Assembly (NCBI GenBank): GCA_035474135.1
Contig: DATINP010000044.1
Span: forward strand, 4,295-68,294
Source: Chloroflexia bacterium
Lineage (GTDB): Bacteria > Chloroflexota > Chloroflexia > QHBQ01 > JADMIH01
DNA: 64,000 nucleotides
Direction: 5' to 3'
The notes beneath the pieces were generated by a model. It had not been told where the DNA came from, ran no database searches, and worked only from the letters and a program-made list of their open reading frames with translations. Within the stretch, counting starts at the first letter, position 1; each line of letters starts with the position of its first letter. This document shows, in pieces, positions 123 to 20,045 of the stretch. Made by a program: the position numbers and the translations under genes.

Positions 123-1169
123 ATGATCATAGTAATGCGAATGGGGGCAGAGGCTCACGAAGTGGGCGGGGTCATACAGCGGATACAGGGGCTTGGGTAT
201 CGCCCGCACGTCTCCAGCGGGTCAGAGAGAGTAATCGTGGGCGTGATCGGCAACGTCAGGCCCCTCGACCCCGAGGACTTCCTGTCGCTGAGCGGTGTCG
301 AGAAGGTGATACCTATCCTCCAGCCCTACAAGCTGGCGAGCCGCGACTTTAAGCCCAGCGACACTGTCATCCGGGTGAACGACGCGCTGATCGGAGGAGA
401 TAACGTCACCTTTATGGCGGGGCCGTGCTCGGTGGAAAGCCGGGAACAAACGTTCGAGGTGGCGCGGCAGTTACGCGATATGGGCGTGAAGATCATGCGC
501 GGCGGTGCCTTCAAGCCTCGTACCTCGCCCTACAGCTTCCAGGGCATGGGCGAAGAGGGCCTCCAGATTCTGGCCGACGTACGTGACCAACTAGGCATGT
601 CGATAATCACCGAGGTCATGGCGCCCGACGAGGTGGGGCTCGTGGCACGCTACGCCGACATACTGCAGATCGGCACCCGCAATATGCAAAACTACAGGCT
701 CCTTGAAGAGGCCGGCAGGCAAAGCAAGCCGGTATTGCTGAAGCGGGGGATGAGTTCCACTATAGAGGAATTGTTGCTTGCCGCCGAATATATACTGGCG
801 CAAGGCAACACACAGGTGATGTTGTGCGAGCGTGGCATACGCACCTTCGAGAAGGCCACGCGCTCCACCTTCGACATTAACGCTATCCCTGTCCTCAAAG
901 GGCTGACCCATCTACCCGTGATAGCCGACCCCAGCCACGGTACTGGGCGCTGGGATCTCGTAACGCCCGTATCGCTGGCGGCGGTAGCAGCGGGCGCCGA
1001 CGGCATAATCATCGAGGTGCACAGCCACCCCGAACTGGCGATGTCGGATGGGGGACAATCACTGCGCCCTGAAAGATGCAACGTCTTGATAGAAGACATA
1101 CGCAGGGTTGCGCAGGCTATCGGACGTGGGCTTGATGTGGCCCACGGGGCTGGAGTGTATGCGGCTTAG
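123..1169 (+). CDS. aroF: DAHP synthase (3-deoxy-7-phosphoheptulonate synthase), type I-beta with N-terminal ferredoxin-like regulatory domain
   Basis: 348 aa, collinear with Thermotoga-type DAHPS (MIVV N-terminus, [40 protein letters not shown] motifs); AAGGA RBS upstream. Confidence 0.9.
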
Positions 1170-2016
1170 CGAGACCACTATCGCTATTGTGGGCCTGGGG
1201 CTGATGGGCGGCTCGCTTGCCATGTCGCTGCGCGGGCATTGTGCGCGGCTGGTGGGCGTAGCACGCGACTCTGCGGTGGGCCAGTGGGCATTAGAGCAGG
1301 GAGTGGTGGACGTTGTATGCGAGCTAGAGCAGGCGGCGAGCGAGGCCGATATAGTAGTGCTGGCAACACCTGTGCGCCACATCATCGCGACCATACCAGG
1401 CACGGCAGCACTGATGCATCCGGGCGCACTTCTGCTCGACCTGGGCAGCACGAAGGCAGAAGTGGTCGAGATGATGAACGCTATCCCGCATGAGTTGGGA
1501 GTGGCGGCCATAGGCGGGCATCCTATGTGCGGCAAAGAGGTGGGTGGTCTTGGCAGCGCGGATGCTACCCTCTACAATGGGGCGACCTTTGTGCTCACCC
1601 CCACGCTACGCACCACGCATGAAGCCCTGGTGCTGGCACGCGAGCTTGTGAGCGCGGTAGGAGCGCGAGCCGTAGTGCTGGAGGCTGAACAGCACGACAG
1701 GGCAGTGGCGGTTATCAGCCACCTCCCATATCTGTTGGCAAGCATGCTGGTGCAGGCCGAGGCAGAGGCAAGCATCAAGGACCCCGTTACGGGCACACTG
1801 GCGGCGAGCGGCTTCCGCGATACGAGCCGCCTTGCAGCCAGCCAGACCGGGATGATGTTGGACATACTACGCACCAACGGGCCGAGCGTGGAGGCAGCGC
1901 TTGACCTGTTTGAGGCGCAGTTGAGGCAGGTAAGGGCGCTATTGGGGAACGAAGACGAAGCAGGGCTGAAAGAGTGGATGGTAAAGGCCAGGAAGCGGCG
2001 AAGGGAGATGTTCTGA
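1159..2016 (+). CDS. tyrA: prephenate dehydrogenase
   Basis: Rossmann motif [12 protein letters not shown] and conserved HLPYLLA core; ORF opens at 1108 but ATG at 1159 overlaps aroF stop, so the shorter start is preferred. Confidence 0.8.
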
Positions 2017-3326
2017 TGGGCGCAACAGGAACGTCAAAGACGATGGTGATACAGGGCGGGAGAGAAAACCTTGTGGGAAGAGTCGAGGTGCCAGGCGACA
2101 AGTCAATCTCGCACCGGGCGACGATGCTGGGGGCGCTGGGCGAGGGTACAACGCGCATACGGAACTTCCTGCCCGCCAGCGACTGCCTGAGCACACTGGA
2201 AGTAGTGCGCGGGTTGGGAGTCGAAGTGGTGTATAGCCAGGACGAGGTGCTGGTGCGTGGGCTAGGGCTGAAGGGCTGGCGCCAACCCACGAGGTCGCTG
2301 GAGTGCGGCGGGTCGGGCACGACTATGCGTCTCATGGCGGGCCTACTGGCGGGATTGCCGTTGTACAGCATACTGGCTGGCAATACCCAATTGAGCCGTA
2401 GACCGATGGATAGGGTAGCTGTGCCCCTGCGGCAGATGGGCGCAACCATCCTCGGCGATGATGACGGCAAGTACCCGCCGTTGTCCATTCTCGGAGGCGA
2501 CCTGAGAGCGATCCGGTACGAGATGCCCATCGCCAGTGCGCAGGTGAAGTCTGCTGTTCTGCTGGCAGGACTGTTCGCGCAGGGGGTCACTTCGGTGGTA
2601 GAAGCGGCTGTCACGCGCGACCACACCGAGAGGATGCTGACCGCAATGGGCGTGCGAGTAGAGAGTGAGGCCGGCATGGTTCAGGTGCACCCGTCGCCGC
2701 ATTTGGAACCTCTGGACCTGCGCGTACCGGCGGACATGTCGTCGGCGGCGTTTCTGCTGGCAATAGCAGCAGTGGTGCCCGGTTCGCGTGTGATGGTGCC
2801 GGGCGTGGGCATTAACCCGGGCCGGGTGGGCATCTTGCACGTTCTGCGGAAGATGGGAGCCGAGGTGTGCCTTCACAACCAGCGTGTCGATGCAGGCGAA
2901 CCTGTGGCCGATATCGAGGTGAGGTATGGCACTCTCAGGGGCATTTCGATAGGGGCGGAGGACGTGCCCACAATGATAGACGAGTTGCCCGTGTTGGCGG
3001 TGATTGCGACCCAGGCCGAAGGGGTGACCGAGGTGCGGGGGGCAGCCGAATTGCGGGTAAAGGAGACCGACAGGATAGCTACCACGGTATCCGAACTGAG
3101 GCGCATGGGAGCGCGTATCGAAGCTCTGGAAGATGGGTTCGTGGTGGAAGGGCCAACGAGACTACACGGGGCACACGTCGAGAGTCACGACGACCACCGG
3201 CTTGCTATGTCGCTGGCGGTGGCGGCACTGGCGGCGAGCGGTGAAACGACGATAGAGGGCGCAGCTTGCCTTAGCGACAGCTTCCCGGGCTTTGAAGAGC
3301 AAGTTGCACAACTCATCGGTTATTGA
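2016..3326 (+). CDS. aroA: 3-phosphoshikimate 1-carboxyvinyltransferase (EPSP synthase)
   Basis: KSISHR, LGALGEGTT, GNTQLSRRPMDR, LAVIATQAEG motifs; ATG overlaps tyrA TGA (ATGA coupling); ORF-track start at 1974 is upstream of the likely start. Confidence 0.9.
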   Translation: MGATGTSKTMVIQGGRENLVGRVEVPGDKSISHRATMLGALGEGTTRIRNFLPASDCLSTLEVVRGLGVEVVYSQDEVLVRGLGLKGWRQPTRSLECGGSGTTMRLMAGLLAGLPLYSILAGNTQLSRRPMDRVAVPLRQMGATILGDDDGKYPPLSILGGDLRAIRYEMPIASAQVKSAVLLAGLFAQGVTSVVEAAVTRDHTERMLTAMGVRVESEAGMVQVHPSPHLEPLDLRVPADMSSAAFLLAIAAVVPGSRVMVPGVGINPGRVGILHVLRKMGAEVCLHNQRVDAGEPVADIEVRYGTLRGISIGAEDVPTMIDELPVLAVIATQAEGVTEVRGAAELRVKETDRIATTVSELRRMGARIEALEDGFVVEGPTRLHGAHVESHDDHRLAMSLAVAALAASGETTIEGAACLSDSFPGFEEQVAQLIGY

Positions 3327-3375
3327 GACGTGAAACGCAAAGATCGCAGAGAGCGCAAAGTTTTAAGAGGTCGGG

Positions 3376-3393
3376 TTTTTGTCGCGACAAAAA
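3376..3393. repeat. TTTTTGTCGCGACAAAAA perfect palindrome (copy 2)
   Basis: 18-bp perfect palindrome between aroA and aroE. Confidence 0.85.
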
Positions 3394-3394
3394 A

Positions 3395-3438
3395 GACGTA
3401 TGACGCATGACGCATGACGCATGACGCATGACGTATGA
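3395..3438. repeat. (GACGYAT)6 tandem heptamer array
   Basis: gacgtat gacgcat x4 gacgtat read directly. Confidence 0.9.
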
Positions 3439-3444
3439 GATACC

Positions 3445-4314
3445 ATGGCACCTGACGACCACCAAGACACATCAACTGTCACACATCACGTCGGCCTCAT
3501 CGGCTACCCCGTGGAGCACAGCCTGTCGCCCGCAATGCACAACGCAGCATTCACGCATTTGGGGTTGGAATACCGATATGTGCTATTGCCTACACCTCCT
3601 AGCGAGTTGGAGAGGCGCGTGAGAGAGTGCGTGGAGCGAGGGTTCGCGGGGTGGAACGTGACGGTACCCCACAAGGAGGGGATGGCACGAATGCTTGACG
3701 AGATGAGCGACGAGGTGAAGGCAACCGGCGCGTGCAACACTGTGCTGGTGGAGGGTGGCAAACTGCAGGGCTTCAATACTGACACAATAGGGTTTATACG
3801 AGGGCTAGAGGAAGCGGGCGGTATCTCGGCAGGCTCGAAGGCGGTCGTGCTGGGCGCAGGCGGGGCGGCGCGCGGCGTGGCGTGGGCATTGAGGCAAGCC
3901 GGGCACCGGGTGATTATTTTGTCGCGGAAGCCGGAGCAAGCGCGAGAGGTCGCCGAGGCTATAGGGGTAGAAGCCGGTCTGCTTGATGCGGAAACGCTAG
4001 AGGGCGAACTTGAAGTGGCGCAGCTACTCGTGAACTGCACGCCCGCGGGTATGTGGCCTCATGTGGAGGAGAGTCCTGTGCCGGACGGTGCGCGGATACC
4101 GGCAAACATGCTGGTGTACGACCTGGTGTACAGGCCAAGGCCGACATTGATGCTGCGGAAGGCGGCGGAGGCGGGCTGCCGTACGCAGAATGGGCTGGCG
4201 ATGCTGGTGTACCAGGGAGCAGCAGCGTTCGAAATATGGACGGGCCGTCCTGCCCCAATAGAGATGATGAGAAGGGCGTGCGTCAGGGGCGAGGGATTAG
4301 GGGTTAGGGGTTAG
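3445..4314 (+). CDS. aroE: shikimate dehydrogenase
   Basis: GLIGYPVEHSLSP, NVTVPHK, NTDTIGF, GAGGAARG motifs; C-terminal residues GLGVRG are encoded by the GGGGTTA heptamer repeat. Confidence 0.85.
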   Translation: MAPDDHQDTSTVTHHVGLIGYPVEHSLSPAMHNAAFTHLGLEYRYVLLPTPPSELERRVRECVERGFAGWNVTVPHKEGMARMLDEMSDEVKATGACNTVLVEGGKLQGFNTDTIGFIRGLEEAGGISAGSKAVVLGAGGAARGVAWALRQAGHRVIILSRKPEQAREVAEAIGVEAGLLDAETLEGELEVAQLLVNCTPAGMWPHVEESPVPDGARIPANMLVYDLVYRPRPTLMLRKAAEAGCRTQNGLAMLVYQGAAAFEIWTGRPAPIEMMRRACVRGEGLGVRG

Positions 4315-4368
4315 TAAGACGTCGTAAAACGCATAACTTCTAACACCTGACCCCTCACCCCTAACACC
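4287..4368. repeat. GGGGTTA-based composite inverted repeat
   Basis: ggggcgagggattaggggttaggggttag ... ctaacacctgacccctcacccctaacacc; left arm encodes the AroE C-terminus. Confidence 0.75.
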
Positions 4369-4389
4369 TACAGGAAGGATAACGCAACA

Positions 4390-5529
4390 ATGATACACAG
4401 GTTTCTTACGGGCGGAGAGTCACACGGGCCGGGGCTAACCACGATAGTGGAGGGGTTCCCGGCGGGGCTGGCATTGGACGTGGAGGCGATCAACCACGAG
4501 TTGACCCGTCGCCAAGGGGGCTATGGACGCAGCGGGCGCCAGCATATCGAGCGTGACGAGGTGCAGTTCTGGGGCGGAGTGGAGAATGGCGTCACCACAG
4601 GCGGGCCAATCGTCATGCAGATCGCCAACCGCGACTACGCCAACTTCATCAAGAAGGAGCACCCACGCCTCACCGCGCCACGGCCAGGCCACGCAGATCT
4701 CGTGGGGGCCATCAAGTATGGCTACAGCGACATGAGGACGGCGCTTGAACGCTCAAGCGCGCGGGAGACGGCGGCTCGAACAGCGACGGGCGCCCTCGCC
4801 AAGCAGTTGCTGGGGCAGTTCGGGGTGAAGGTGGGCAGTGTCGTCACAGAGATCGGGGGCGAACAGGCCGACGTGGACCTGTCGTCCCCGGAGTCGCTCC
4901 TGGAGGCCACAGAAGCCTCGCCCGTGCGGTGTCCTGATACGGAGGCCACGGAGCGAATGAAAGCGCGCATAGACTACGCCAGGCGCACCGGTGACACGTT
5001 GGGTGGGGTGTTCGTGGTGTGGGCGACAGGGCTTCCAATAGGGTTGGGAAGCTATGTGCACTGGGACCGCCGCCTCGACGGTCTGCTCGCGTGGGCGGTG
5101 ATGAGTATCCAGGCGATCAAGGGGGTGGAGATCGGCGAAGGCTTCGAGAACGCCCGCATGAACGGGCGGGACGTGCACGACCAGATTTATGTCGGCGAGC
5201 GGGGGTTGGAGAGGCACACGAACCGTGCGGGTGGGCTGGAAGGCGGCGTGACTAATGGGCAGCCGCTGATCGTGCGTGCCGCGATGAAGCCGATCTCTAC
5301 TACGATCAACCCGTTGCAGACGGTGGACGTGGCAACGGGCGAGGCGGCCAGCACGCAGTACCAGCGCTCGGACTTCTGCGCCGTGCCCGCAGCGGGCGTA
5401 GTGGGCGAGGCAATGGTGGCGTGGATACTGGCCGACGTGCTGCACGAGAAGCTGGGCGGCGACAGCCTGAGTGAGATGCGCGCACGGACGACGGACGACG
5501 GACGACCGACGACGGGCAGTGCCCGGTGA
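4390..5529 (+). CDS. aroC: chorismate synthase
   Basis: GESHGPGL, RRQGGYGRSGRQ, RPGHADL, SARETAART signatures; C-terminal TTDDGRPTTG is encoded by the left arm of a GGACGAC hairpin element. Confidence 0.9.
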   Translation: MIHRFLTGGESHGPGLTTIVEGFPAGLALDVEAINHELTRRQGGYGRSGRQHIERDEVQFWGGVENGVTTGGPIVMQIANRDYANFIKKEHPRLTAPRPGHADLVGAIKYGYSDMRTALERSSARETAARTATGALAKQLLGQFGVKVGSVVTEIGGEQADVDLSSPESLLEATEASPVRCPDTEATERMKARIDYARRTGDTLGGVFVVWATGLPIGLGSYVHWDRRLDGLLAWAVMSIQAIKGVEIGEGFENARMNGRDVHDQIYVGERGLERHTNRAGGLEGGVTNGQPLIVRAAMKPISTTINPLQTVDVATGEAASTQYQRSDFCAVPAAGVVGEAMVAWILADVLHEKLGGDSLSEMRARTTDDGRPTTGSAR

Positions 5530-5559
5530 CCAGCAGGCGTCGTCCGTCGTCCGTCGTCC
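5484..5559. repeat. (GGACGAC)n / (GTCGTCC)n hairpin element spanning the aroC-aroK junction
   Basis: Left arm acggacgacggacgacggacgaccgacgacgg, 22-nt loop, right arm cgtcgtccgtcgtccgtcgtcc. Confidence 0.85.
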
Positions 5560-6086
5560 GTCGTCCTACCAGGAATCTGGTGCTGGTAGGATTTATGGGC
5601 ACTGGCAAGACTACTGTGGGCGCGCTTGTGGCCGAGCGGCTGGGGTGGTCGTTCGTGGATACGGACGCACTGGTCAAGGTAGCGACGGGGATGTCCGTAG
5701 CCGAGATCTTCGCGACGCAAGGAGAGGTCGCGTTCCGAGCGCTGGAGAGAGAGGCGTGCCGGGAGGCAAGCGCACGCCAACACGTCGTTATAAGCGTGGG
5801 AGGCGGAGCCGTGATGGACCCGGAGAACAGGCGTGCGCTTGAAGCGAGCGGGATGCTTGTGCTGTTGACGTGCGAGCGCGACAGGCTGATCGAGCGATTG
5901 GAGGAGTCTGTGCGCCGAGGCGAGCGGCCCCTGCTTACCGGCGACATTGGGAAACGTATAGACACACTCGCCGCGAGCCGGGCGCAGGTGTATGGGTCAA
6001 TCGCGATGAAGGTGGACACTACGAGGCTGACGCCGGAAGAGGTTGTAGAGATTTTGGTCAGGGATTGTAACCCTTTACTCTCGTAA
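5526..6086 (+). CDS. aroK: shikimate kinase
   Basis: Walker A GFMGTGKTT and shikimate-kinase core; GTG start overlaps aroC stop; N-terminal [11 protein letters not shown] is encoded by the right arm of the hairpin element, so the true start is uncertain. Confidence 0.8.
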   Translation: MTSRRRPSSVVRRPTRNLVLVGFMGTGKTTVGALVAERLGWSFVDTDALVKVATGMSVAEIFATQGEVAFRALEREACREASARQHVVISVGGGAVMDPENRRALEASGMLVLLTCERDRLIERLEESVRRGERPLLTGDIGKRIDTLAASRAQVYGSIAMKVDTTRLTPEEVVEILVRDCNPLLS

Positions 6087-6097
6087 AAGGAAGCATT

Positions 6098-7234
6098 ATG
6101 CAGGACATACAAGCCGACACTATTCGAGTGCAGACGCTCGATGGAGGGTACGATATCGTGCTGGGGAACGGATTGCTTGAAAGTGTGGGAAGGCTGGCGA
6201 GCAAGTTGGGGCTGGGCCGGAGGGTGGTGGTCGCCAGCGACACAAATGTGGCTCCTCTGTATGCCGAGCGAGCTATCCAGCCGCTGAAAGGCGCTGGTTT
6301 CGACGCTACACTGGCGGTTATGCCTGCTGGCGAGAAGCATAAGCGGTGGCCGTCGGTCGAGATGTTCGTGGAGTCCTTTCTGGACGCTGGCCTCGACCGG
6401 GGAGGTTGGGTGGCGGCGCTGGGCGGGGGCGTGGTGGGCGACACTGCCGGGTTCGCCGCATCTGTCTACATGCGCGGGGTGGACTTTGTACAACTGCCAA
6501 CCAGCCTGCTGGCTATGGCCGATTCGAGCATCGGGGGCAAAGTGGGCGTGGACCACGAGCGTGGCAAGAACCTGCTTGGCGCGTTCAAACAGCCCCGACT
6601 GGTGGTGGCCGACCTGGACGTGCTGGCGACCCTGCCACAGAAAGAGGTCGCGTGCGGCATGGCCGAGGTGATCAAGGCAGAGGTGATAGGGGGAATTGAC
6701 GACGGACGACGGACGACAGACGACAGCAATCGACTAACGTCCTCGGTCGTCCGTCGTCCGTCGTCCGTCGTCTCTCCTACGATCTACGACTCGCTGCGCC
6801 GGGCTATCGAAGTGAAGCGAGGGATCGTGGAGCGCGACCCGCACGAGGCGGGGGAGAGGGCGCTGCTGAACCTGGGTCATACGTTCGGGCACGCTTTCGA
6901 GAAATGCACAGGGTATAATAGGCCTCACGGCTACGCGGTGGCGCAGGGGATGGTAGTGGCGTGCAGGCTGGCGGCGGCGCTCGGTATGTGCGACGAGGGG
7001 TTGGCTGAGAGCGTTGAGCGCGCGCTCGCAGCGTGGGACCTGCCCATCAGGTGGGGTGCGCCCGATCTTGAGGACGAGGGTGCTGTGGAGCGCGTGTGGG
7101 AGGCGATGAGGCTGGACAAGAAGCGCGTGGACGGGAGATTACGCTTGGTTTTGCCGGAGGCAATTGGCAGGGTGTGCATTGTTGACGATGCGCCCGAAGT
7201 TGTTATCAAGAGGGTATTGAGGGAGACGAAGTGA
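6098..7234 (+). CDS. aroB: 3-dehydroquinate synthase (carries an in-frame palindromic-repeat insertion)
   Basis: DHQS motifs [27 protein letters not shown]; residues DDGRRTTDD...[11 protein letters not shown] (nt 6698-6772) are encoded by a perfect heptamer hairpin element. Confidence 0.85.
6698..6772. repeat. (GGACGAC)n / (GTCGTCC)n perfect hairpin element inside aroB
   Basis: gacgacggacgacggacgacagacgac - 21-nt loop - gtcgtccgtcgtccgtcgtccgtcgtc; 75 nt, a multiple of 3. Confidence 0.9.
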
Positions 7235-8986: not shown

Positions 8987-10018
8987 TTAGGCTTTGCCGT
9001 TCAAGTCCGCGGCTTCGGGGTTGTGCCCTTTGAACACAGTAAAAAGCAGCCACAACGATGGTATCAGCAGCAAAGCGCCTACCGGAGCGGTCGCCAGTAG
9101 GAAGCCGAGCGTGGCGTCGGGCGCAGCCGAGGCATCGATAGTTAGATCCGGGTAGATGAGATAAGGCCATTGCGCCAGCGCCCATCCCCAGAGTAGCATC
9201 ACCACCTCGGCCACGGCTGTGACGCGCGCCACTGCGAAGCGCCTGTTCAGCACAGCCCACAGCGATAAGAGCGCAAATACAACGCCGAGAGCGAGCACGG
9301 GCAACGCCCTCAAGCTCAACAGGTTCTCGGCCAACCTCGGAGCCTGCCACACAAGCAGGGGAATCAACAGCACCGAAATGGCCACCACCACGCCGCCCGA
9401 CACCAGTGTGCGCCGCCGGAAGTCCTCGCGCAAGTCACCTTCCGTTTCTAACGTAAGGTAGACCGCGGCGAGATAGGCGAACAGAGCCAGTGCCAGGGCG
9501 CCGCAGGCCCACGACAGTGGGGTGAGCCAGGCTGTAAAGTAGTTCACTTGTACGGTACCGCCCGCCGCAACCTTGATTTCGCCTGCGGACACTGCGCCGA
9601 GGCACATGCCAAGCAAGACAGGCGTAATAACACTCGCGCTCCCGAATGCACGCGCCCACACACGCTGCGGGCCAACTTCCTCCGATCCGTGTGCCCTGAA
9701 CACAAACGCCGCCCCGCGCAGAATGATCCCCAGCAACAATAAGTGGAACGGGATAAAGAAAGCCTCGCTCAAGGCCGAAAAGGCAATAGGAAAGGCCGTG
9801 AACAGAATCACAAGTAGAAAGATCAGCCAGACGTGGTTCGATTCCCAGACAGGCCCCATCGCATCGGAAATGGCGCGTCTTTGAGCGTTAGCTCGTGGGC
9901 CTCTCGCGAAGAAATCCCACACACCGCCACCAAAATCGGCTCCGGCGAGCACCGTATAGGCGGTGAGGGCGAGCAACGCCAGCCCTGCCGCCAGGGTACT
10001 AAGCGACAGCGACACCAC
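8987..10018 (-). CDS. cydB: cytochrome bd ubiquinol oxidase subunit II
   Basis: Multi-TM protein with CydB N-terminus (ADFGGGVWDFF...) immediately downstream of cydA. Confidence 0.85.
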   Translation of the reverse strand: MVSLSLSTLAAGLALLALTAYTVLAGADFGGGVWDFFARGPRANAQRRAISDAMGPVWESNHVWLIFLLVILFTAFPIAFSALSEAFFIPFHLLLLGIILRGAAFVFRAHGSEEVGPQRVWARAFGSASVITPVLLGMCLGAVSAGEIKVAAGGTVQVNYFTAWLTPLSWACGALALALFAYLAAVYLTLETEGDLREDFRRRTLVSGGVVVAISVLLIPLLVWQAPRLAENLLSLRALPVLALGVVFALLSLWAVLNRRFAVARVTAVAEVVMLLWGWALAQWPYLIYPDLTIDASAAPDATLGFLLATAPVGALLLIPSLWLLFTVFKGHNPEAADLNGKA

Positions 10019-11351
10019 CTACCTCCTTCCCGCCGCTCGCGGATGTTTTCTGGTCCTCGTCGTCAACAGGACGGCCCGTAGCAAGCCTGAGCAAAAGCCA
10101 TACCAGTGTTACAGCCAGTACGATATACAGCCCGATGAACCCGGCGAAAGTATACCAGACGCCAGGTGCCGGCGTCACCGCATCTGCCGTACGCATCACG
10201 TTGTAAATGATCCAGGGTTGGCGGCCCACCTCGGTAACGATCCATCCCGCTTCCAGCGCCGCCACGCCCAGGACGCCGCTCAGCACCAGGGCACGAAGGA
10301 TCCATTTCCCGTGCTCTCGCTTCCGCCACCGCACGAACCAGTAAATCAGAGCGAACAAAAGTATGGCGAGTCCGCTACCAACCATTACCTGGAACGATAT
10401 ATGCACCAGCCCAACCACAGGCCAATCGGTTCTCGGCACCGCATCCAGACCCTGTATCTCGGCATTCGGGTCGTGGGTCGCCAGGAAACTCAGACCATAA
10501 GGTATTTCTAAGGAGAAAGGCACAGTCTCGTTGTTGATGTCAGGTATGCCCCCGATCCGGAGAGGTGCGCCCTTTTCAGTTTTGAACTGCGACTCCATCG
10601 CTGCGAGCTTGACGGGCTGCGTCTGCGCCACCAGCCTTGCCGCAGCATCGCCACTAATTGGCTGTGCGACAGCGGTTATCGTGCCCAGTATCATCGCGAG
10701 CGCCAGCCCCACCTTGTGATAGGTGTCGCGCCTGCCCTTCAGCAGACCCCAGGCATACACGCCGGCCACCATAAACGCGGTTGCCATATAAGAGGCAAGA
10801 GTAAGGTGCACCGCCAGCACGGCCCAGGAGGGATTAATTAGCGCCTTCACGGGGTCAATGTTGGTGGCCTGTCCGTTTACGAGGTCGAAGCCGGTGGGAT
10901 CCTGCATCCAGGAGTTGGCCGACATGACCAGCACCCCTGACATCGCTCCGCTCACCGCCACGGGTATGCCGCAAAGCCAGTGGGCCGTGGGCTTTAGGCG
11001 CTTCCAGCCGTAGAGGTAGAGCCCCAGGAATATGGCCTCTATGAAGAAAGCGTATCCCTCAAGGGCGAAGGCCGGACCAATCAAAGGACCTGCGAGTTTC
11101 ATGAATGGCGGCCAGAGCAGGCCCAGTTCGAACGACAGAGCGGTGCCGCTGACAGCACCAATAGCGAACAGGATGCCCGTAGCTTTGGCCCACTTGTGTG
11201 CCAGATCGAGATAAACCGCCTTCTTCGTGCGCAGCCCTAGCCCCTCAGCCACCAGCATCAAGAGCGGCATGCCAATACCAAGCGCCGCAAAGACCATGTG
11301 AAATCCCAGAGAAATCGCCATCTGTAGTCGCGCAGCTATCAGATTTTCCAT
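9999..11351 (-). CDS. cydA: cytochrome bd ubiquinol oxidase subunit I
   Basis: CydA N-terminus and Q-loop region (GFHMVFAALGIGMP, WAKATGILFAIGAVSG, EGYAFFIEAIFLGLYLYGW). Confidence 0.9.
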   Translation of the reverse strand: MENLIAARLQMAISLGFHMVFAALGIGMPLLMLVAEGLGLRTKKAVYLDLAHKWAKATGILFAIGAVSGTALSFELGLLWPPFMKLAGPLIGPAFALEGYAFFIEAIFLGLYLYGWKRLKPTAHWLCGIPVAVSGAMSGVLVMSANSWMQDPTGFDLVNGQATNIDPVKALINPSWAVLAVHLTLASYMATAFMVAGVYAWGLLKGRRDTYHKVGLALAMILGTITAVAQPISGDAAARLVAQTQPVKLAAMESQFKTEKGAPLRIGGIPDINNETVPFSLEIPYGLSFLATHDPNAEIQGLDAVPRTDWPVVGLVHISFQVMVGSGLAILLFALIYWFVRWRKREHGKWILRALVLSGVLGVAALEAGWIVTEVGRQPWIIYNVMRTADAVTPAPGVWYTFAGFIGLYIVLAVTLVWLLLRLATGRPVDDEDQKTSASGGKEVGGVAVA

Positions 11352-11491: not shown

Positions 11492-12577
11492 TTAATCTCC
11501 AAGATCCTTTTCCACGCCGAACATGACGTATAGCTTACGGGCGATCACGCAAATGGTTGCAAGGTCAAGGCGCTCTTCGAGGGAGAGGTTGGCGTCGGCG
11601 TCCACGCTGTCGGCGAAGCTTTGCATCATAGCGGAAATGCGAGCCAACTTGGAGCGCCGCGCCCGACGGTTGGCACGCGCCATCAGCATCAGGCGGTGCA
11701 TCTGGCCTGCGGGAGTATCCTCTTTAGCCAAACGCTCAAGGTCGCGCTTCAGCTTGCGGTCGATCTGTACCTCTACGCCGTCCACCAGCACCGTCTCCAT
11801 GGTTGAGGTCGAAGAAGTGTCGCCTTCATCCTCGCCGACGAAGTCGGATTCGCCGCGCTTCTCTTTTAGCTGGCGGATGTACGTGGGGAGGTCGTCGGTG
11901 GTGATCTCGCCCGCGAGAAGCTGGCGGATCATATCTGCACGGTCGTCTGCGTCCGCCACTTTAATCAGGTTGGCGACAGCACGCAGGCTGTCGGGCTTGG
12001 CCTCGATCAGGGCCTGTATATCAGCGGGCGCTCTGGCGGCGCGTACCCTGTTGTAAACGTAGCCAAGCTTCTTGCCCACCTCGCGTGCGATCTGCTCCAG
12101 TGTGAAGCCCATCTCGGCGCTCATCAGCAGATAAATACGGCCTTCTTCGAGAGGCGAGAGGTCTTCGCGCTGGATATTCTCGGTGATGGCGAGAGTGACC
12201 ATCTCCTCGTCTGTGAGTTCCTTGACGATGACGGGCAGGGTAGAAAGACCGATCATGCGTGAGGCCTCACGCCTGCGGTGGCCGGCGGTAAGCTGGTAGT
12301 GGCCCTTGAGCTCGGGGTGAGGACGAGCGGTAAGGACGCCCTGAAAGCCCTGGGCGCGTATTACGGAGGCTAGTTCTTCGAGAGCCACACCACCTGTGCT
12401 GCTGCGAGGCTGGTAGGGGTTGTCGTGCAGGCGGTCGAGGGGCAACATGGTTGTACGGCGCTCGCCGTGTTGGCCCGAAGAGTCGGGCGAGAGGCTGGAC
12501 GCGAACAGCCGCGACATATCTTTGCCCGGCTCATCCAGGTCCAGTTCAACAGGTTTGAGAGTTCGTTTGCCGCTCAT
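11492..12577 (-). CDS. parB: ParB/Spo0J-family partition protein
   Basis: ParB N-terminal domain with LTAGHRRREAS (box II GHRR) and LPVIV motif; start chosen at MSGKRTL (ORF track extends to 12691). Confidence 0.8.
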   Translation of the reverse strand: MSGKRTLKPVELDLDEPGKDMSRLFASSLSPDSSGQHGERRTTMLPLDRLHDNPYQPRSSTGGVALEELASVIRAQGFQGVLTARPHPELKGHYQLTAGHRRREASRMIGLSTLPVIVKELTDEEMVTLAITENIQREDLSPLEEGRIYLLMSAEMGFTLEQIAREVGKKLGYVYNRVRAARAPADIQALIEAKPDSLRAVANLIKVADADDRADMIRQLLAGEITTDDLPTYIRQLKEKRGESDFVGEDEGDTSSTSTMETVLVDGVEVQIDRKLKRDLERLAKEDTPAGQMHRLMLMARANRRARRSKLARISAMMQSFADSVDADANLSLEERLDLATICVIARKLYVMFGVEKDLGD

Positions 12578-12861
12578 GTGTGCTCCGATCCGTTGATAGG
12601 TGTGAGAATTCGTCCTATGGTTGCCGGTGCCAATGCCGATTTTGGAAATGCTTGTGGGTGATAGTATAGCCCCACGTTGTTGCGGAGGCAAATCGTGCGG
12701 GTGTATTTTACTTCATAGCAAAGTCGCGCTGATTTTGCTTGCCGGGGGACCGATCTTCATGTGGAAGCGGACACCAGGTCTAACAAAATGGGCTAAAATG
12801 AATTACGTGTCGCCGATGAGCGCCGGCACTTTAGGGACTGAGCCGGAAAGGGGTAGCCAGG

Positions 12862-15250: not shown

Positions 15251-16336
15251 CTAATCGTCGCCGGTTGCTTCGGAGATTGGCACATTACTCCCAGCGTGAG
15301 GTGTGTTTGGTACAAGTTTTGAAATGCGGTCGAGGGCAGGCCCGCCTATTACGCGTAGAAGTTCTGCCAGCAGATTGCGGTAGGCCTGGGTGTGCTCGCT
15401 ACGGGGGTGGAGGGTGACCATCACCTGCCGCAGCATGGAGGCTTCGCCATATTTGGTGCTGCGCTTAATAGTGGTCTTGAAGGCGCGTATATTGCGCTTT
15501 TGGAGGGCTTGCCGCAGGCTCTCTTCCATTGCCCGGGCCACGTTGGTGCTGGACTGCACCATCATCGCCACCGCGCCAGCCACCTGCAAGCGCGGGTTGA
15601 AGTCTTTGCGCGTTTCGTCTACGCGCTTCAAGAGCAGTTGCAGACCCTTGAGGGAGAGCATCTCGAGTTCCGTAGGGATCACCAGGTAATCGGCAGCGTA
15701 CAGGGCGTTGATGGTGAGGGAGCTAAGGTTGGGGCCGGGATCGAGCAGGATGTAGTCGTAGCGACCGCGTATCCCGCGCATGGCGTTGGACAACCGGCTC
15801 CCCCAGTTGGGTTTGCCGCGCAGGTAGTCCTCGGCTTCACTGCTGACAATGTTGTTGGGCACGAGGTCGGGGCCGAAGGCGGTGTGCAGGATGACATCCT
15901 CTAGCTCACAATCGCCGATCATAGCGTCATAGACCGTGGCCTGGAGGCCCTCAGGGTTGTGACCCAGCGACCATGTGAGATGGCCCTGCGGGTCGAGGTC
16001 GACCGCCAGCACTCGCACCCCCAGCCCTGAGAGCAACACCGCAAGGTTGGCGGTGGCGGTGGTTTTGCCCACCCCTCCCTTCTGGTTGACGAGCGCGATC
16101 ACCACAGCGCCGTGGTTGCGGTCGAGCGACATGCCCGCGAGAAAGGCGTCCACATCGGCCTCGTAGACTCGGTAATGGCCGCCGGAGGTGGAGTTGGCAG
16201 GCAGGAGGCCTTCGCGGATGTACTGGGCCACAGTGCCTGTATGCACACCCAGGCGCTCGGCTACCTCGGAGGTTCGGAGCAGGCGGCTATGTTCCCTGGC
16301 GTCGCGGTTGTCGCGCGTATCGCGTGCGTCTCTCAT
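15251..16336 (-). CDS. parA: ParA/Soj-family ATPase with N-terminal MerR/excisionase-type HTH
   Basis: Deviant Walker A NQKGGVGKTT plus N-terminal HTH (LLRTSEVAERLGVHTGTVAQYIREG); N-terminus carries an (RDx) tripeptide repeat. Confidence 0.8.
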   Translation of the reverse strand: MRDARDTRDNRDAREHSRLLRTSEVAERLGVHTGTVAQYIREGLLPANSTSGGHYRVYEADVDAFLAGMSLDRNHGAVVIALVNQKGGVGKTTATANLAVLLSGLGVRVLAVDLDPQGHLTWSLGHNPEGLQATVYDAMIGDCELEDVILHTAFGPDLVPNNIVSSEAEDYLRGKPNWGSRLSNAMRGIRGRYDYILLDPGPNLSSLTINALYAADYLVIPTELEMLSLKGLQLLLKRVDETRKDFNPRLQVAGAVAMMVQSSTNVARAMEESLRQALQKRNIRAFKTTIKRSTKYGEASMLRQVMVTLHPRSEHTQAYRNLLAELLRVIGGPALDRISKLVPNTPHAGSNVPISEATGDD

Positions 16337-16631
16337 CGTCGTCCTTTCAGTTGGAGAGCAGCCCAGATGTCCCCTTGTAGTACAGTGGTGGAAGACCCTT
16401 CTCCTGCACCATTCATACTCTACGTGCGTTACGACCGATTATTGCGTTTCGTGCGTTAGATGGGTAATATATCATGAAATCGTGTAAGTGCGAAGTTTAT
16501 CCACAATCGAAACCAGGATGACTTCCTGGTGAAACGTAACACAAACAGCGATTGATACGTATGATCTGGTAGACTGGATGGTGTAGTCCGGTATCACAGC
16601 CTGGGAGTTTACAGGCAAAGGCGATAAAGCA

Positions 16632-17048
16632 ATGTTAATAGCGTTACATCCACCTGCGTTCTTGTGGTTTTTCAGCGGGTTCCGTGGGAACTGGACCTTC
16701 ATTATAGGGTTCATCGTTATCATGCTGGTGTTGCGGGTTGCATTACGCAGCTTCTTCCCTAGAGGGGGCATGAGGCGCGGCGGGGGGCCTCGTTATAACA
16801 AGTACAACCAACCGCAACCACCGAAACCTGATCAAGGCCAAATCACCGACAAACCCTACTACGGAGCGCCGGGAACCAATAGCGAAGGACAGGGTACGGG
16901 AGCAGAAACTGTGCGCACCGGCGGGGTCGACACGCGCCGCGTGGATAACTGGAGCAGTGAAACGCCCTCGGCCTACGGCGAGCCTACCCGCCCGCTGGAG
17001 AGCAAATCTGAGATGCCGAGAGAAGATACCGACCAGACCTCTTCTTAA
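16632..17048 (+). CDS. hypothetical small membrane protein with disordered C-terminus
   Basis: 138-aa ORF with two predicted TM helices then a G/P/Q-rich tail; sits in an AT-richer intergenic block. Confidence 0.35.
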   Translation: MLIALHPPAFLWFFSGFRGNWTFIIGFIVIMLVLRVALRSFFPRGGMRRGGGPRYNKYNQPQPPKPDQGQITDKPYYGAPGTNSEGQGTGAETVRTGGVDTRRVDNWSSETPSAYGEPTRPLESKSEMPREDTDQTSS

Positions 17049-17058
17049 TCTCGGGCAA

Positions 17059-18762
17059 CTATGTGATCTTCGGTACTGAGCGGCGCAGACACGCGAAGAA
17101 GTAGGCCATTTTATTCGTCAGGCCTATCGCGCCGTGCTTGCCCTGTCCTTCGCGCGTGGTACGCTTCGCAGTGTACATGAGGTCCACGAACGCCTCGGCT
17201 TGCAGCCCCGACGTGCGCCATAACCGCATTGCTTGGCCTACATTTTCCAGCACGTGATCAGCATCTCCCAGTTCGTATGAGAAGTCTGCAACTACCCTCG
17301 AGATAAAGGGCGAATAGGCCGGGTCGCGAGCTTCTCCGGGTTCGTTCCCAGAAGCCTTTTTGACCAAGTTATGACTCGAGTCAGCCTTCATAATTTGTTC
17401 TGGATGATCTGCTTCTATTTCGTGTTCACCGCGCGTCACCGGGGGCTGTGCACTGCCTGTCATGGGACGCGGTGTCTTCCGCTTTACAGGGGCTAGCAAC
17501 TGCGCGTCACCTGGGCGTGCATACTGTACGTCGTTGGGGCCTGTCAACTGTGCGTCACTACCCACCTTATACTGTACGTCACTGGTGGCAATAAACTGGG
17601 TGTCACCGGGAAGAGGATACTGTATGTCACCAGGGGGTGTATACTGCGCGTCACCGGGATGCGCATACCCGCCGTCACGACCCATTGTATGTATCTGTGC
17701 GCCTGCACGGTCGCGTCGAGCCTGTGCCGCGAGGCTGCCGCGACGGGCTTTCTTGACTGGAAGGGTCGTGCTTGCTTCCTGCAAAGCTCCTGCTGTAGCG
17801 TCGGCTTCTGTGTCGTCTCCGGTTGGGGTTTGTCCGTTCTTCCCCGGTTTGAGCAGGTTGCGGATCTCGTCCAAGAGGGGGCTGAAGTCGTAGGCGTTCG
17901 AGTCTTGCCCGCCGTCGCTCTTGGTGCGGCGTACCAGCCGAAGCGAGCCGCGCTCGACCAGTCCCGTCTTGATGCGGTGCAGATAGGCGGCTGTGTAACC
18001 CGTCTGCAAGGCCATACGCACTATGCTGGGATAGGGCAGGGATGTGTCCCACTGGTATGAGAAAATGTAGGCCACGAACCACACCTGCTGTGGGGTCATG
18101 TCCAGTTCTTTACTGTATGTAAACAGGGCGCGTGGCACCGCTGCCACTCCGTAGCGGGTCAGTACCCTGCCGTAGCGGGCCACAAAGCTTGGGTCGTGCT
18201 GGGCGCGCTCGATCTCTTCGATGCCGCGCTCGTACCCGTTCTCATGCCCGTTGCGTTGGGGGAAATCTGGGACGCGTGTGGGGTCGTAAATCGAGCTTAT
18301 GGGATTGCTGTTGATCCTGCTTTTGACGTGCTCGGTAATGCACGATTCGAGCCTCTCGAACAGGGCGGCGAAGTCGTAGTAGTTCGACTCTTGCCCGCGC
18401 TCCTGCGACCTCCTGGGCAGGACCAGCAGGTAGCCCATGCCCTGTAGCTCGTCGCTGTATCGTTGTAACTGCCTCTTGCTCATGCCCGATGCGCGGGACA
18501 TCACGCCCAGGCTGGGGTAGGGGAGGTCTTCGTCCCATTTATGTGACAGGATGTAGGAGATGAACCATACATGCTGGGCGTAGAGGTCGAGCTTACCACC
18601 GAAGTGGTACAGCGCCGACGGCAGGGCCGCGATCCCGTGTTGCAGGATCACTCTGCCGAAACGCGCCGCGAAGCTATTGCCTGTCCCGGCAAAGGTGCCC
18701 GGGTTGACCTCTATATCGCCGTTTTGTCCTACCCTGCCCCTCTGTTCTATATTTTTGGGCAT
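17059..18762 (-). CDS. putative replication-initiator-like DNA-binding protein with tandem winged-helix domains and an octapeptide repeat
   Basis: Two roughly 110-aa paralogous domains (ARFGRVILQHGIAALP... and ARYGRVLTRYGVAAVP..., each ending SN.YDF); 8 x (xGDxQYxx) repeat; GGAGG RBS 8 nt upstream of ATG at 18762. Confidence 0.45.
   Translation of the reverse strand: MPKNIEQRGRVGQNGDIEVNPGTFAGTGNSFAARFGRVILQHGIAALPSALYHFGGKLDLYAQHVWFISYILSHKWDEDLPYPSLGVMSRASGMSKRQLQRYSDELQGMGYLLVLPRRSQERGQESNYYDFAALFERLESCITEHVKSRINSNPISSIYDPTRVPDFPQRNGHENGYERGIEEIERAQHDPSFVARYGRVLTRYGVAAVPRALFTYSKELDMTPQQVWFVAYIFSYQWDTSLPYPSIVRMALQTGYTAAYLHRIKTGLVERGSLRLVRRTKSDGGQDSNAYDFSPLLDEIRNLLKPGKNGQTPTGDDTEADATAGALQEASTTLPVKKARRGSLAAQARRDRAGAQIHTMGRDGGYAHPGDAQYTPPGDIQYPLPGDTQFIATSDVQYKVGSDAQLTGPNDVQYARPGDAQLLAPVKRKTPRPMTGSAQPPVTRGEHEIEADHPEQIMKADSSHNLVKKASGNEPGEARDPAYSPFISRVVADFSYELGDADHVLENVGQAMRLWRTSGLQAEAFVDLMYTAKRTTREGQGKHGAIGLTNKMAYFFACLRRSVPKIT
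17487..17680. repeat. 8 x 24-bp tandem repeat inside the Rep-like gene (iteron-like; encodes xGDxQYxx)
   Basis: Each unit ends ACTG(Y)(R)(Y)GTCAC with exact 24-bp period (GTCAC ends at 17510, 17534, ... 17678). Confidence 0.8.
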
Positions 18763-18781
18763 AGAAAACCTCCTGTACCCC

Positions 18782-18810
18782 TTGACAGGAGGATGGCCCG
18801 GTGCTACAAT
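18782..18810 (+). promoter_or_regulatory. consensus sigma70-type promoter (TTGACA-17-TACAAT)
   Basis: TTGACA 18782-18787, 17-nt spacer, TACAAT 18805-18810; points away from the Rep-like gene. Confidence 0.55.
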
Positions 18811-18816
18811 GCTTTT

Positions 18817-18909
18817 GAGCATACATTGTGCCGGTGATCCTCCTCCCAAGAGGGCCACACCGACGGAATCTTCAAAGCCTGACTGTTACCAGCAGTCGGG
18901 TTTTTATTT
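18817..18909 (+). ncRNA. putative small RNA of about 90 nt (promoter plus terminator defined), divergent from the Rep-like gene
   Basis: Consensus promoter at 18782-18810 and an 8-bp-stem hairpin followed by TTTTTATTT at 18878-18909; no ORF in between. Confidence 0.4.
18878..18909 (+). terminator. rho-independent terminator
   Basis: CCTGACTG/CAGTCGGG stem (one G-U pair), 7-nt loop, then TTTTTATTT. Confidence 0.6.
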
Positions 18910-19131
18910 GTCCGTCGTAAGTTCACCTGTGATGTGGAAGCCATTGAACCGGGCTGCCTTGTGTGCCTCGTGGGCTGAGCTGTCGCGTTCCCAGGCGCTC
19001 TTGCTCGTTCCCCGCACACCTCCCGATCTCTGTACTTCCATCATTGTCTGATTGCTAGGTCATCGTGTTATTCCTCCCGCGTAACCCGAAAAAACGGCTC
19101 GAAAAAAGGATACAAAAATGCTCCATGCCTA

Positions 19132-19160
19132 TTGACAGGGAGTTGGTAGTCTGGTATATT
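19132..19160 (+). promoter_or_regulatory. consensus sigma70-type promoter (TTGACA-17-TATATT) with upstream A-tracts
   Basis: TTGACA 19132-19137, 17-nt spacer, TATATT 19155-19160; preceded by GAAAAAACGGCTCGAAAAAAGG A-tracts. Confidence 0.45.
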
Positions 19161-19428
19161 GAGGTTACGCAATCGAATATACAGCTACAACACCCCTGCA
19201 AGGGTCCTTGTGGCGGAACCTGAAGCCTCTTAGACTGCAATCTTCGAGGTTTCGATATTTAAGCCGCCCCTTTGTATTTATGTCGGAGCAAGTTCGCTCC
19301 CGGTTGTTGGTTTATTAGTGCGGTCTGTTTTCTCCCTGTTGCATGTGGCTCATGGTTGCTCTTTGGCCTGTATCATGGCGTGGGTCGCTGCGTCTCCACG
19401 GTCTGCAAACCAGGAGACACATCATACC

Positions 19429-19674
19429 CTAGCCCTCTGTACCCGTGCGCTGTTGCGCCGGCACCTGGATGGTGTCGCGGCCTCTTTGCAACTGCTCAAG
19501 CTGTTCGAGGCGCTCGACGATATCGTCGTAGCTGTCGGCGTCCAACACCACGAACCTCTGCCTCCCCTTGACCACCAGCACAGGCCGCCCATTGGACGCC
19601 TGTTCCAGCTGTGGGCCGGGATTCATCCTGAAGCTCTTGTAGTCCACCACATCTCTCAACTGTATCTTCGCCAT
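19429..19674 (-). CDS. Phd/YefM-family type II antitoxin (orphan)
   Basis: MAKIQLRDVVDYKSF...VVLDADSYDDIVERLEQLEQLQ matches the Phd/YefM fold; GGAGG RBS; no toxin ORF detected downstream. Confidence 0.6.
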   Translation of the reverse strand: MAKIQLRDVVDYKSFRMNPGPQLEQASNGRPVLVVKGRQRFVVLDADSYDDIVERLEQLEQLQRGRDTIQVPAQQRTGTEG

Positions 19675-20045
19675 GAGCGACCTCCGTTCGTCTGAGCTTT
19701 CCAGTATCTGGCTTGAGATGCTATGCTGTATCTGCAATATTACTACTTAACGTATGCGCGAAGCACATATCTACGTAGAAATCTCCAACTTTCTTACGCA
19801 CAGAATCTCCAACCTACCGGATGATAGCGGATGTTGCGCCGGATAGCAATAGGTTTTTACACATCCTTTGGTTTCTCGGCCCGTCTCTTGCTTACATTCT
19901 AGTATGCCAGGGATCCTTGTCGCGAGAAAAAAATGGACATAGGACTCGGGGACGGAACACGGATCACGAAGATAACCAGGAAGCCTATGAGAGCGAGTAA
20001 GAGAACTCCAAGATATTCAAGGATCAAGCGTTTGAACTACGACTT

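Follow-up and report, generated by a model that had tools for sequence, protein, structure and literature searches.

The 64,000-nucleotide (nt) stretch of Chloroflexia DNA analysed here (from contig DATINP010000044.1; 'the window' below) carries a gene for a small RNA (sRNA), sRNA1, on the plus strand just upstream of a minus-strand gene that resembles replication initiator genes (the rep-like gene, rep for short). Our comparison of the window with related loci indicates that this interval probably encodes a constitutive counter-transcribed RNA (ctRNA) of ∼93 nt that would control rep negatively, through antisense-driven attenuation of the rep transcript combined with occlusion of the rep Shine-Dalgarno (SD) sequence. 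We regard it as highly likely that the sRNA gene exists and has a functional link to rep. The whole unit is kept in 27 related loci, and this conservation is the strongest evidence that the unit did not arise by chance. The coordinates of all features are collected in Table 1.

An initial annotation of the region had drawn attention to a promoter consisting of TTGACA at 18782-18787, a 17-nt spacer and TACAAT at 18805-18810. All three elements are located precisely there, and the −10 box is of the extended type, with a TG at 18802-18803. The accompanying claim that a consensus promoter is rare in this DNA also stood: the pattern TTGACA-N14-TGNTAYAWT, with up to one mismatch, has two matches in the window, at 18782 and at 19132 on the same strand, and none in 100 dinucleotide shuffles. 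The sRNA1 start was placed at the seventh nucleotide after the −10 box (±2 nt). Starting there, the RNA is laid out as a single-stranded 5′ tail of ∼15 nt, a composite hairpin, a linker and a terminator, and the computed fold of the 93-nt molecule, in which a short 5′ hairpin precedes the composite central hairpin and the terminator, has a free energy of −33.6 kcal/mol (z = −3.67), with none of 200 shuffles being as stable. The predicted terminator hairpin is indeed present, though it comprises 14 pairs rather than the 8 bp originally assigned to it. Likewise, the view that nothing coding lies between promoter and terminator needs qualification: mechanically called open reading frames (ORFs) overlap the sRNA1 interval, yet what is conserved in the 27 related loci is a covarying RNA structure and not a reading frame. 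A palindrome across the predicted sRNA start, which by eye had seemed to covary, folded no better than shuffles in individual loci (−2.4 versus −1.6 kcal/mol) and straddled the start with at least four pairs in only 6 of 25 loci. A YUNR motif, which has been described as a general enhancer of antisense pairing (PMC4485353), is found in the target complement of at least one loop for 17 of 23 sRNAs. Searching the whole window against Rfam at gathering thresholds gave no match to sRNA1. When the search was relaxed to E = 10 over 18600-19500, only ar14 (19.1 versus 58.8 bits required) and sar (20.3 versus 43) appeared; we rejected both, as they score below gathering and match the terminator hairpin and the C/U-rich loop.

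To follow the unit beyond the window we used 26 loci fetched through the rep-like protein; these are related to one another, and counts of loci are therefore not counts of independent events. In 22 of the 26, the promoter TTGACA-N17/18-TGCTAYNAT is found on the non-rep strand, within a few nucleotides of the rep ribosome-binding site, and the pattern was also present in four further loci. It is followed by an RNA of 85–99 nt with a strong terminator, even where the protein identity has fallen to ∼40% (range 40–93%). A covariance model was built from the fetched-locus sequences, with a hand-specified structure and model-guided realignment. It yielded one strong match per locus, directly ahead of the rep homolog on the other strand, in all 23 loci with intact upstream DNA (43–100 bits), the match in the window spanning 18812-18913 (64.6 bits, E = 1e-16). 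Four held-out loci, which were retrieved later via exact-protein look-ups and had no part in model building, have the RNA at the same place (56–84 bits), giving the total of 27 loci with the RNA. No other strong copy was detected by the model in the 64-kb window, the only additional hit being a weak full-length match at 19162-19262. The sRNA is absent from L020, L023 and L024, which have divergent or partial rep homologs, and in L014 the contig end cuts the locus exactly at the promoter.

The helices of the RNA covary. With 23 sequences aligned under the model, 85.8% of cells are paired and 12 of 21 pairs show double substitutions; the covariation score of 0.327 was reached by none of 500 shuffles (0.179) and compares with at most 0.15 for slid partners. 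Structure-guided alignment inflates pair counts somewhat, and the slid-partner control still favours the structure; RNAalifold on the raw MAFFT alignment recovered the terminator only, the internal helices needing the hand-specified structure. G-U pairs are frequent on the sRNA strand, one terminator pair being U-G in 16 of 21 sequences. Such pairs become A-C mismatches on the complement, which argues for the plus-strand RNA as the structured product, and for the same reason the terminator is effectively one-directional (scans of L032 and L004 flag the sRNA strand only). Taken together, the conservation upstream of rep homologs, the covarying helices, the G-U pairs on the RNA's own strand and the held-out loci bear out the original call of a discrete sRNA of ∼90 nt. 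The sRNA loop is conserved as a GCCAAG-type sequence with an invariant CCA; the CCUCCUCCC motif is confined to the window clade, with GCCUCUGCC, CUCUCAGCC, CCCACCGCC and similar sequences elsewhere. Copies residing in one genome are 42–68% identical and never near-identical, which is compatible with replicon-specific control.

On the rep strand, the region facing the sRNA promoter forms a hairpin that contains the rep SD sequence. The AGGAGG of rep is found at 18770-18775, at the distance of 6 nt from the sRNA −35 box that had been noted at the outset. In per-sequence folding, which was used in place of column-wise covariation (infeasible for this hairpin), an SD-pairing hairpin preceded the rep start in all 25 loci analysed, and a U-rich tract separated it from the start codon in 24 of them, the exception being L021. 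The MAFFT columns do not match here because the distance of the 5′ arm from the −35 box varies by clade. The arms change with the SD context (CCUCCUGU/ACAGGAGG in the window, GCCCUCCAC/GUGGAGGGC in L006, CUCCUUG/CAAGGAG in L009 and AUGCACC.../...GGUGCAU in L016), and within the loop lies UGUCAA, complementary to the sRNA −35 hexamer. Compared with its complement, the rep-strand hairpin has the greater stability in 19 of 25 loci (means −15.7 versus −12.9 kcal/mol; mean z = −2.6), and the hairpin in the window was independently flagged as terminator-like on the minus strand. The design is distinctive and compact, in that a single DNA segment supplies the −35 box and spacer of the antisense promoter, which overlap one arm and the loop of the attenuator, while the other arm overlaps the rep ribosome-binding site. 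The CCUCCUCCC stretch of sRNA1 is conserved solely as a mimic of the attenuator 5′ arm and not as a general anti-SD motif.

The leader also contains a potential partner for the 5′ part of the attenuator. The putative antiterminator, CCUCUUGGGAGGAGGAU, lies inside the stretch that the sRNA would cover and can pair with the attenuator 5′ arm and loop, AUCCUCCUGUCAAGGGG (the complement of 18778-18794); at the DNA level, a repeat finder reported 18778-18794 and 18837-18853 as an inverted repeat of 17 nt with 82% complementarity. In the window the duplex has a computed energy of −36.4 kcal/mol versus −21.5 ± 3.7 kcal/mol for shuffles, none of 300 being as good. Across loci the mean z is −2.2, and in 12 of 23 loci no more than 5 of 300 shuffles were as good. 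Cognate duplexes beat non-cognate ones modestly (−25.0 versus −23.0 kcal/mol, permutation p = 0.0014), the advantage being modest because the antiterminator core is conserved in sequence; in L021, the most divergent sequence, there are compensatory changes in the antiterminator pairing. On sequence grounds, the leader complement of the sRNA central hairpin is thus the predicted natural competitor of the SD for the attenuator 5′ arm. The conservation of the sRNA loop has a matching explanation, as the GCCAAG-type loop mimics the leader UGUCAAG, which is the complement of the sRNA's own −35 hexamer.

Folding of the rep-sense leader, from the sRNA 3′ end to the rep start, gave, in many loci, a long-range helix joining the complement of the sRNA central hairpin to the attenuator 5′ arm and loop, with the SD left unpaired. 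We then mimicked bound sRNA by forbidding pairing of the sRNA-complementary leader stretch. Blocking lowered the probability of the SD being unpaired in 13 of 23 loci, for example from 0.67 to 0.12 in the window, from 0.37 to 0.01 in L006 and from 0.38 to 0.00 in L017.

The SD hairpin can serve a purpose only in a rep transcript that begins farther upstream than the sRNA promoter region. In the loci examined, the next gene upstream on the rep strand is always co-oriented with rep. The order parA-parB-[sRNA on the opposite strand]-rep is found in L002-L004, L012, L021, L022, L025, L026 and L032, and scans of the rep strand in the parB-rep spacer (including those of L032 and L004) revealed no terminator-like or promoter-like site. 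A Phd/YefM-like ORF occupies the upstream position in the window, L001 and L007, and also in L005 and L018, while L015, L016, L028 and L030 have an IS200-type Y1 transposase gene there. A search of the rep strand from the sRNA terminator up to the neighbouring gene gave no conserved sigma-70-type promoter; weak sites are located ∼1.07 kb upstream, in the window clade only. With read-through from the upstream genes, the sRNA would be fully antisense to the rep leader, and we infer from the gene order that the rep transcript extends across the sRNA gene. The initial annotation had raised antisense control of the rep leader as a possibility; the SD hairpin in 25 of 25 loci, the leader complementarity and the co-oriented upstream genes together argue for it on comparative grounds.

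These observations are consistent with the following mechanism. Transcription of rep would begin at a minus-strand promoter farther upstream, probably on the transcript of the Phd-like gene in the window and on the parA-parB transcript in other loci, and the rep leader would thereby contain the exact complement of the ctRNA. In a free leader, 5′-CCUCUUGGGAGGAGGAU would pair with the downstream AUCCUCCUGUCAAGGGG, leaving the SD open, preventing the terminator and allowing rep expression. A ctRNA binding to the nascent leader, its likely entry points being the ∼15-nt single-stranded 5′ tail and two loops, would sequester the antiterminator segment. The CCUCCUGU/ACAGGAGG hairpin would then form and, followed by UUUUCU directly before the AUG, would stop transcription and leave any read-through RNA untranslated, shutting rep off. 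Since the dosage of the ctRNA tracks gene copy number, such a circuit would determine replicon copy number. What the analysis shows is the sRNA gene with its conservation and covariation, the conserved attenuator hairpin and the complementarity; the assignment of the effect to termination as opposed to translational block, its negative sign and the copy-number role are elements that we infer.

Table 1. Positions of the sRNA genes, leader elements and neighbouring genes in the window (minus-strand features are given in plus-strand coordinates)
Feature	Position	Strand	Details
sRNA1 promoter	18782..18810	+	−35 TTGACA 18782-18787; 17-nt spacer; extended −10 TGcTACAAT 18802-18810 (TACAAT 18805-18810)
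sRNA1 transcript (predicted, ∼93 nt)	18817..18909	+	Fold, covariance model
sRNA1 composite hairpin	18832-18862	+	Outer stem 18832-18836/18858-18862; inner stem 18838-18842/18850-18854; loop CUCCCAA 18843-18849
sRNA1 intrinsic terminator	18874-18904	+	14 pairs, core CCTGACTG/CAGTCGGG; U-rich tail to 18909
Rep-leader attenuator	18763..18792	−	Terminator scan; equivalent hairpin in 25/25 loci
Attenuator 5′ arm	complement of 18785-18792	−	CCUCCUGU
Attenuator loop		−	CAAGGGGU; includes complement of sRNA −35 box
Attenuator 3′ arm	complement of 18769-18776	−	ACAGGAGG; carries SD
Attenuator U-tract	18768-18763	−	UUUUCU; directly before AUG 18762-18760
Putative antiterminator	18837..18853	−	5′-CCUCUUGGGAGGAGGAU-3′; complement of sRNA inner-stem 5′ arm and loop
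sRNA2 promoter	19132-19160	+	TTGACA-17-TGgTATATT; pattern scan
sRNA2 RNA	about 19167-19262 (unit 19132..19262)	+	Same hairpin-plus-terminator layout
Attenuator 2	19101..19142	−	Hairpin CUCCCUGUCAAUAGGCAUGGAG (19142 down to 19121), then CAUUUUUGUAUCCUUUUUU
rep-like gene (567 aa)	17059..18762	−	Two tandem DnaD_N/HTH_36-like winged-helix domains, disordered repeat linker, conserved C-terminal helical domain
99-amino-acid (aa) ORF (orf99)	16472-16771	−	Between rep and parA
ParA-type partition ATPase	15251..16336	−	N-terminal HTH; downstream of rep and the 99-aa ORF; Pfam
ParB	11492-12691	−	4.4 kb away
Phd/YefM-like ORF (81 aa)	19429..19674	−	Upstream of both sRNA genes; TIGR01552 20.9 bits (cutoff 20.8), PF02604 E = 1e-4
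Weak promoter-like site	19821..19849	−	TTGCTA-17-TATCAT; upstream of Phd-like ORF; conserved block; equivalents in L001, L007

Several of our results weigh against this mechanism or limit its reach. The antiterminator duplex is no better than shuffles in L007, L010, L011 and L019, and its complementarity is carried largely by conserved sequence and not by covariation. Ten of 23 loci show no thermodynamic switch, the hairpin being already dominant at equilibrium; co-transcriptional kinetics may be relevant in these. The U-tract doubles as the spacer between SD and AUG, which is commonly A/U-rich anyway. No consensus rep-strand promoter was found at a conserved position, and a weak or non-sigma-70-type promoter inside the sRNA gene, which is conceivable, would shorten or abolish the overlap. 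The initiator assignment of the rep-like protein is indirect, with Pfam matches below threshold, no significant match to a solved structure and no close plasmid relative, and, as housekeeping operons are located on the replicon, the term 'plasmid copy number' may be inapplicable.

We considered whether the sRNA could be real and the leader structure be something else, namely that the inverted repeat flanking the −35 box is a DNA operator through which the Rep-like protein, the Phd-like protein or ParB would act on divergent promoters, with the sRNA acting otherwise in trans. The repeat is indeed a DNA palindrome bracketing the −35 hexamer, DNA-binding proteins are encoded alongside, an overlapping rep promoter is conceivable given that no upstream one was found, and the single mismatch in L008, L010 and L011 is a G-U on the plus strand and not on the rep strand. 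However, one arm of the repeat is always the SD while the other tracks its changing contexts, and in L005, L006, L013 and L018 the 5′ arm slides by ∼8 nt relative to the −35 box, which fits RNA pairing and not a fixed operator. Moreover, in 19 of 25 loci rep-sense RNA forms the more stable version of the hairpin, which has a U-tract after it, and an operator would leave the mimicry of the arm and loop by the sRNA central hairpin unexplained. We therefore consider an operator unlikely. An origin-associated transcript, in which the strong promoter would either yield a primer RNA or activate a nearby origin by transcription, is less probable still. It would suit the constant position of the unit next to an initiator-like gene and the near-consensus promoter in all loci, but the strong, conserved intrinsic terminator yields a short discrete RNA, no conserved AT-rich or iteron region was found downstream of the unit, and neither the SD hairpin nor the antiterminator complementarity would be accounted for.

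The CCUCCUCCC displayed in a hairpin of the window RNA, together with the sub-threshold match to Rfam RF02344 (ar14, 19.1 bits), could suggest a trans-acting anti-SD sRNA akin to the alphaproteobacterial ar14, repressing many mRNAs through its CCUCCUCCC loop. We judge this very improbable: the match misses the gathering score of 58.8 bits, the gene is strictly linked to rep, and CCUCCUCCC occurs in the window clade only, the GCCAAG-type loop alone being conserved; a trans-acting anti-SD motif was rejected on the ground that CCUCCUCCC is not conserved among homologs. A chance meeting of promoter-like and terminator-like sequences, with no RNA produced, is a reading that we effectively discard. 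Consensus scans are pattern matches only, which leaves room for it in principle, but no matches are expected by chance and the unit is conserved with covariation across 27 loci, which effectively refutes it.

The antisense attenuation that we favour places the RNA most likely in the functional class of counter-transcribed attenuator RNAs of replicons, as known from pT181, pIP501 and the repABC ctRNA. The initial annotation had likened the arrangement to CopA/RNAI-type control; this part was not upheld, since attenuation and SD occlusion as in the repABC ctRNA, pIP501 RNAIII, pT181 and pSK41 systems are indicated instead. CopA keeps a leader peptide to which repA is coupled from being translated, and ColE1 RNAI prevents primer maturation, independently of any Rep protein. 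Both CopA-CopT (R1/IncFII) and ColE1 RNAI resemble the proposed ctRNA in being constitutive structured antisense RNAs from the controlled replicon, the loops with a YUNR motif in their target complement being a further point of likeness, but they are without a terminator/antiterminator switch directly before the rep start codon. Unlike the case with CopA, no conserved leader peptide was found in the intergenic region here. In pSK41-type (RepA_N) systems RNAI regulates rep at both the transcriptional and the translational level, the initiator has a DnaD-like N-terminal winged helix and origin repeats lie inside the rep coding sequence. Similar to these, the best fold match of the rep-like protein is the DnaD N-terminal domain and 24-nt tandem repeats lie inside rep; however, there is no RepA_N Pfam match here and the winged-helix domains are two in tandem. 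With pIP501 (RNAIII and CopR), pT181 (RNAI/II) and pAMbeta1 the system would share the antisense attenuation layout, two hairpins for loop contacts and a small DNA-binding protein gene upstream (Phd-like here, CopR or Cop there). Pairing of the countertranscript with the rep leader in those plasmids leads to a terminator-like structure ahead of rep (PMC5703833). Neither the Rep families nor the hosts and RNA sequences are related to those of the window, and here the terminator hairpin additionally includes the SD and has a loop that is the complement of the antisense −35 box.

The repABC ctRNAs (p42d ctRNA, Ti-plasmid RepE; inc-alpha) are alike in that the antisense gene, with its own strong promoter and terminator, is the immediate upstream neighbour of the initiator gene and is read from the other strand. 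In that system the free leader keeps the SD open and ctRNA binding leads to an intrinsic terminator before the initiator gene (PMC3155836), a published mechanism that agrees with our in silico leader folding. Also shared are the parA-parB-[ctRNA]-rep order on one strand, which is found in related loci and not in the window, and the presence of several paralogous cassettes per genome on replicons with housekeeping genes. On the other hand, there is no sequence relationship and no Rfam ctRNA family was matched, and the initiator here is tandem DnaD_N/HTH_36-like, without a RepC family in the Pfam or NCBIfam scans. The repABC ctRNA is ∼55 nt long compared to ∼93 nt for the RNA described here. Furthermore, repABC replicons have been described as exclusive to alphaproteobacteria (PMC7610768), and the host here belongs to the Chloroflexia. 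The Chloroflexia system is not a member of the repABC family.

The window also contains a second, diverged copy of the control region, sRNA2, farther upstream of rep. The covariance model gives weak full-length matches to it (17.1 bits for 19162-19262 in the window, 18.7 bits in L001 and 20.4 bits in L007), and within the 1.3-kb intergenic region of the three loci the sRNA2 block is the best conserved. The adjoining attenuator 2 resembles the rep 5′ end elsewhere, with the start codon lost (GUAUCC for GUAUGCC). When tested as above, the free leader of attenuator 2 adopted the antiterminator fold, and the hairpin formed when the sRNA2 complement was blocked. An independent second copy is found in L033 (3052-3407; 37 bits); the same hairpin comes after it, together with a truncated ORF whose product starts MPK like Rep. 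With second copies in both the window clade and L033, tandem remnants of the control module recur. A transcript coming from the Phd-like gene in the window would pass two successive attenuators.

The Phd-like ORF, a conserved coding block that is called as a gene in L027, is a candidate for the first gene of the rep transcript, and the weak promoter-like site preceding it (19821-19849) is a candidate start for a long rep-strand transcript. By analogy, the Phd-like protein is a candidate Cop-like repressor. Just upstream of the ORF and beside the weak promoter, 19767-19813 contains the palindrome ATATCTACGTAGAAAT and a pair of identical AATCTCCAAC repeats at a distance of 24 nt from each other; these are conserved in L001 and L007 and represent a candidate operator for the Phd-like or the Rep-like protein. 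Small Phd/YefM-like genes also come first in the parA-parB operons of L028 (2439-2663) and L033 (977-1201), with no adjoining toxin gene called, and in this system the Phd fold may regulate maintenance genes instead of acting as an antitoxin.

The rep-like gene is best read as starting at ATG 18762 (codon 18762-18760) within a long minus-strand ORF that spans 17059-18858. A Pfam scan of its product (E ≤ 0.01) returned HTH_36 and DnaD_N only, both sub-threshold, and there was no NCBIfam match. In the AlphaFold model two similar N-terminal winged-helix modules are joined by a long disordered linker to a C-terminal helical domain. The best local fold match (Foldseek against the PDB) is the DnaD N-terminal domain 2v79, all matches having E ≥ 0.013 and none being significant, and a profile search of PDB sequences identified no significant relative among solved structures. 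Nor was a close relative of the gene found in a plasmid collection, either by megablast of the region or by tblastn of the protein. Homologs are numerous, and all genome-derived loci and all taxon-bearing source names are from Chloroflexia/Chloroflexota. The replication-initiator label is accordingly a putative one, taken from domain content and synteny with par genes. A subgroup of homologs (P0044, P0068; L028-L031) has a C-terminal DnaA_N domain (DnaA domain I; E = 1e-12 to 4e-16); these have, immediately upstream and in the same orientation, a gene for an IS200-type Y1 transposase, and the sRNA gene sits between the two. Within the rep-like gene, 17427-17668 contains tandem 24-nt/48-nt direct repeats, including six copies of a 23-nt unit (e.g. 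TACTGTAyGTCAC), which encode PGDxQY-like repeats in the disordered linker from the winged-helix to the C-terminal domain. These could be iterons, with the origin lying inside the initiator gene, or, equally, a low-complexity protein linker; in repABC replicons the origin has been reported inside the initiator gene (PMC3155836).

The gene order in the window is Phd-like, ctRNA2, ctRNA1, rep, orf99, parA. The best NCBIfam match of ParA is the plasmid partition protein RepA (TIGR03453, below cutoff). orf99 has no family match in Pfam or NCBIfam, and its position suggests a candidate partition adaptor or centromere-binding protein. The window further encodes a shikimate-pathway operon (DAHP synthase, EPSP synthase, shikimate dehydrogenase, chorismate synthase and DHQ synthase), cytochrome bd oxidase and aconitase (123-7234, 8987-11351 and 53911-56019). 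Since these core-metabolism operons are on the same molecule, the replicon is a chromosome or chromid and not a small plasmid. Paralogous rep/sRNA cassettes are present in single genomes, four in the metagenome-assembled genome JBDTQH and three in JBBRDO, and in CAWCNY two cassettes are ∼825 kb apart on one contig of 1.15 Mb. Multiple cassettes suggest multipartite genomes or cointegrated replicons in these Chloroflexia.

To our knowledge, replication control in Chloroflexota is essentially unstudied, and a literature search returned no paper on Chloroflexi combined with plasmids, replication initiators and antisense RNA among its ten top-ranked full-text results. What is new is most likely the RNA family and the host lineage, the mechanism being already familiar from plasmids; as the mechanism is a textbook one, the conceptual surprise is modest. 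The analysis provides a ready covariance model and 27 examples of a new ctRNA family, and a marker for a lineage-specific initiator family, of which a genome may have as many as four members, located on replicons with housekeeping operons. It also offers a pointer to multipartite genomes organised much like rhizobial repABC replicons, and a candidate minimal replicon and copy-number element for vectors in a phylum without genetic tools.

A broader reading, which is speculative and which we think rather improbable, is that the Chloroflexia possess an independently arisen counterpart of repABC that maintains multipartite genomes, with ctRNA cross-contacts coupling the replicons. The counterpart module may consist of ParA/ParB, the tandem DnaD-like initiator and the ctRNA attenuator, on replicons that carry essential operons. 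Because GCCAA-type loops and the invariant −35-derived UGUCAAG are shared across co-resident cassettes, partial cross-contacts with other leaders are possible. If so, the replication of several replicons would be coupled rather than solely insulated, and the tandem 'decoy' copies (sRNA2 in the window and the second copy in L033) would add a second tier of attenuation.

Elsewhere in the window, a minus-strand ORF at 43716-45068 encodes a WGR domain together with a poly(ADP-ribose) polymerase catalytic domain (PARP E = 7e-33), a protein that is uncommon among bacteria.

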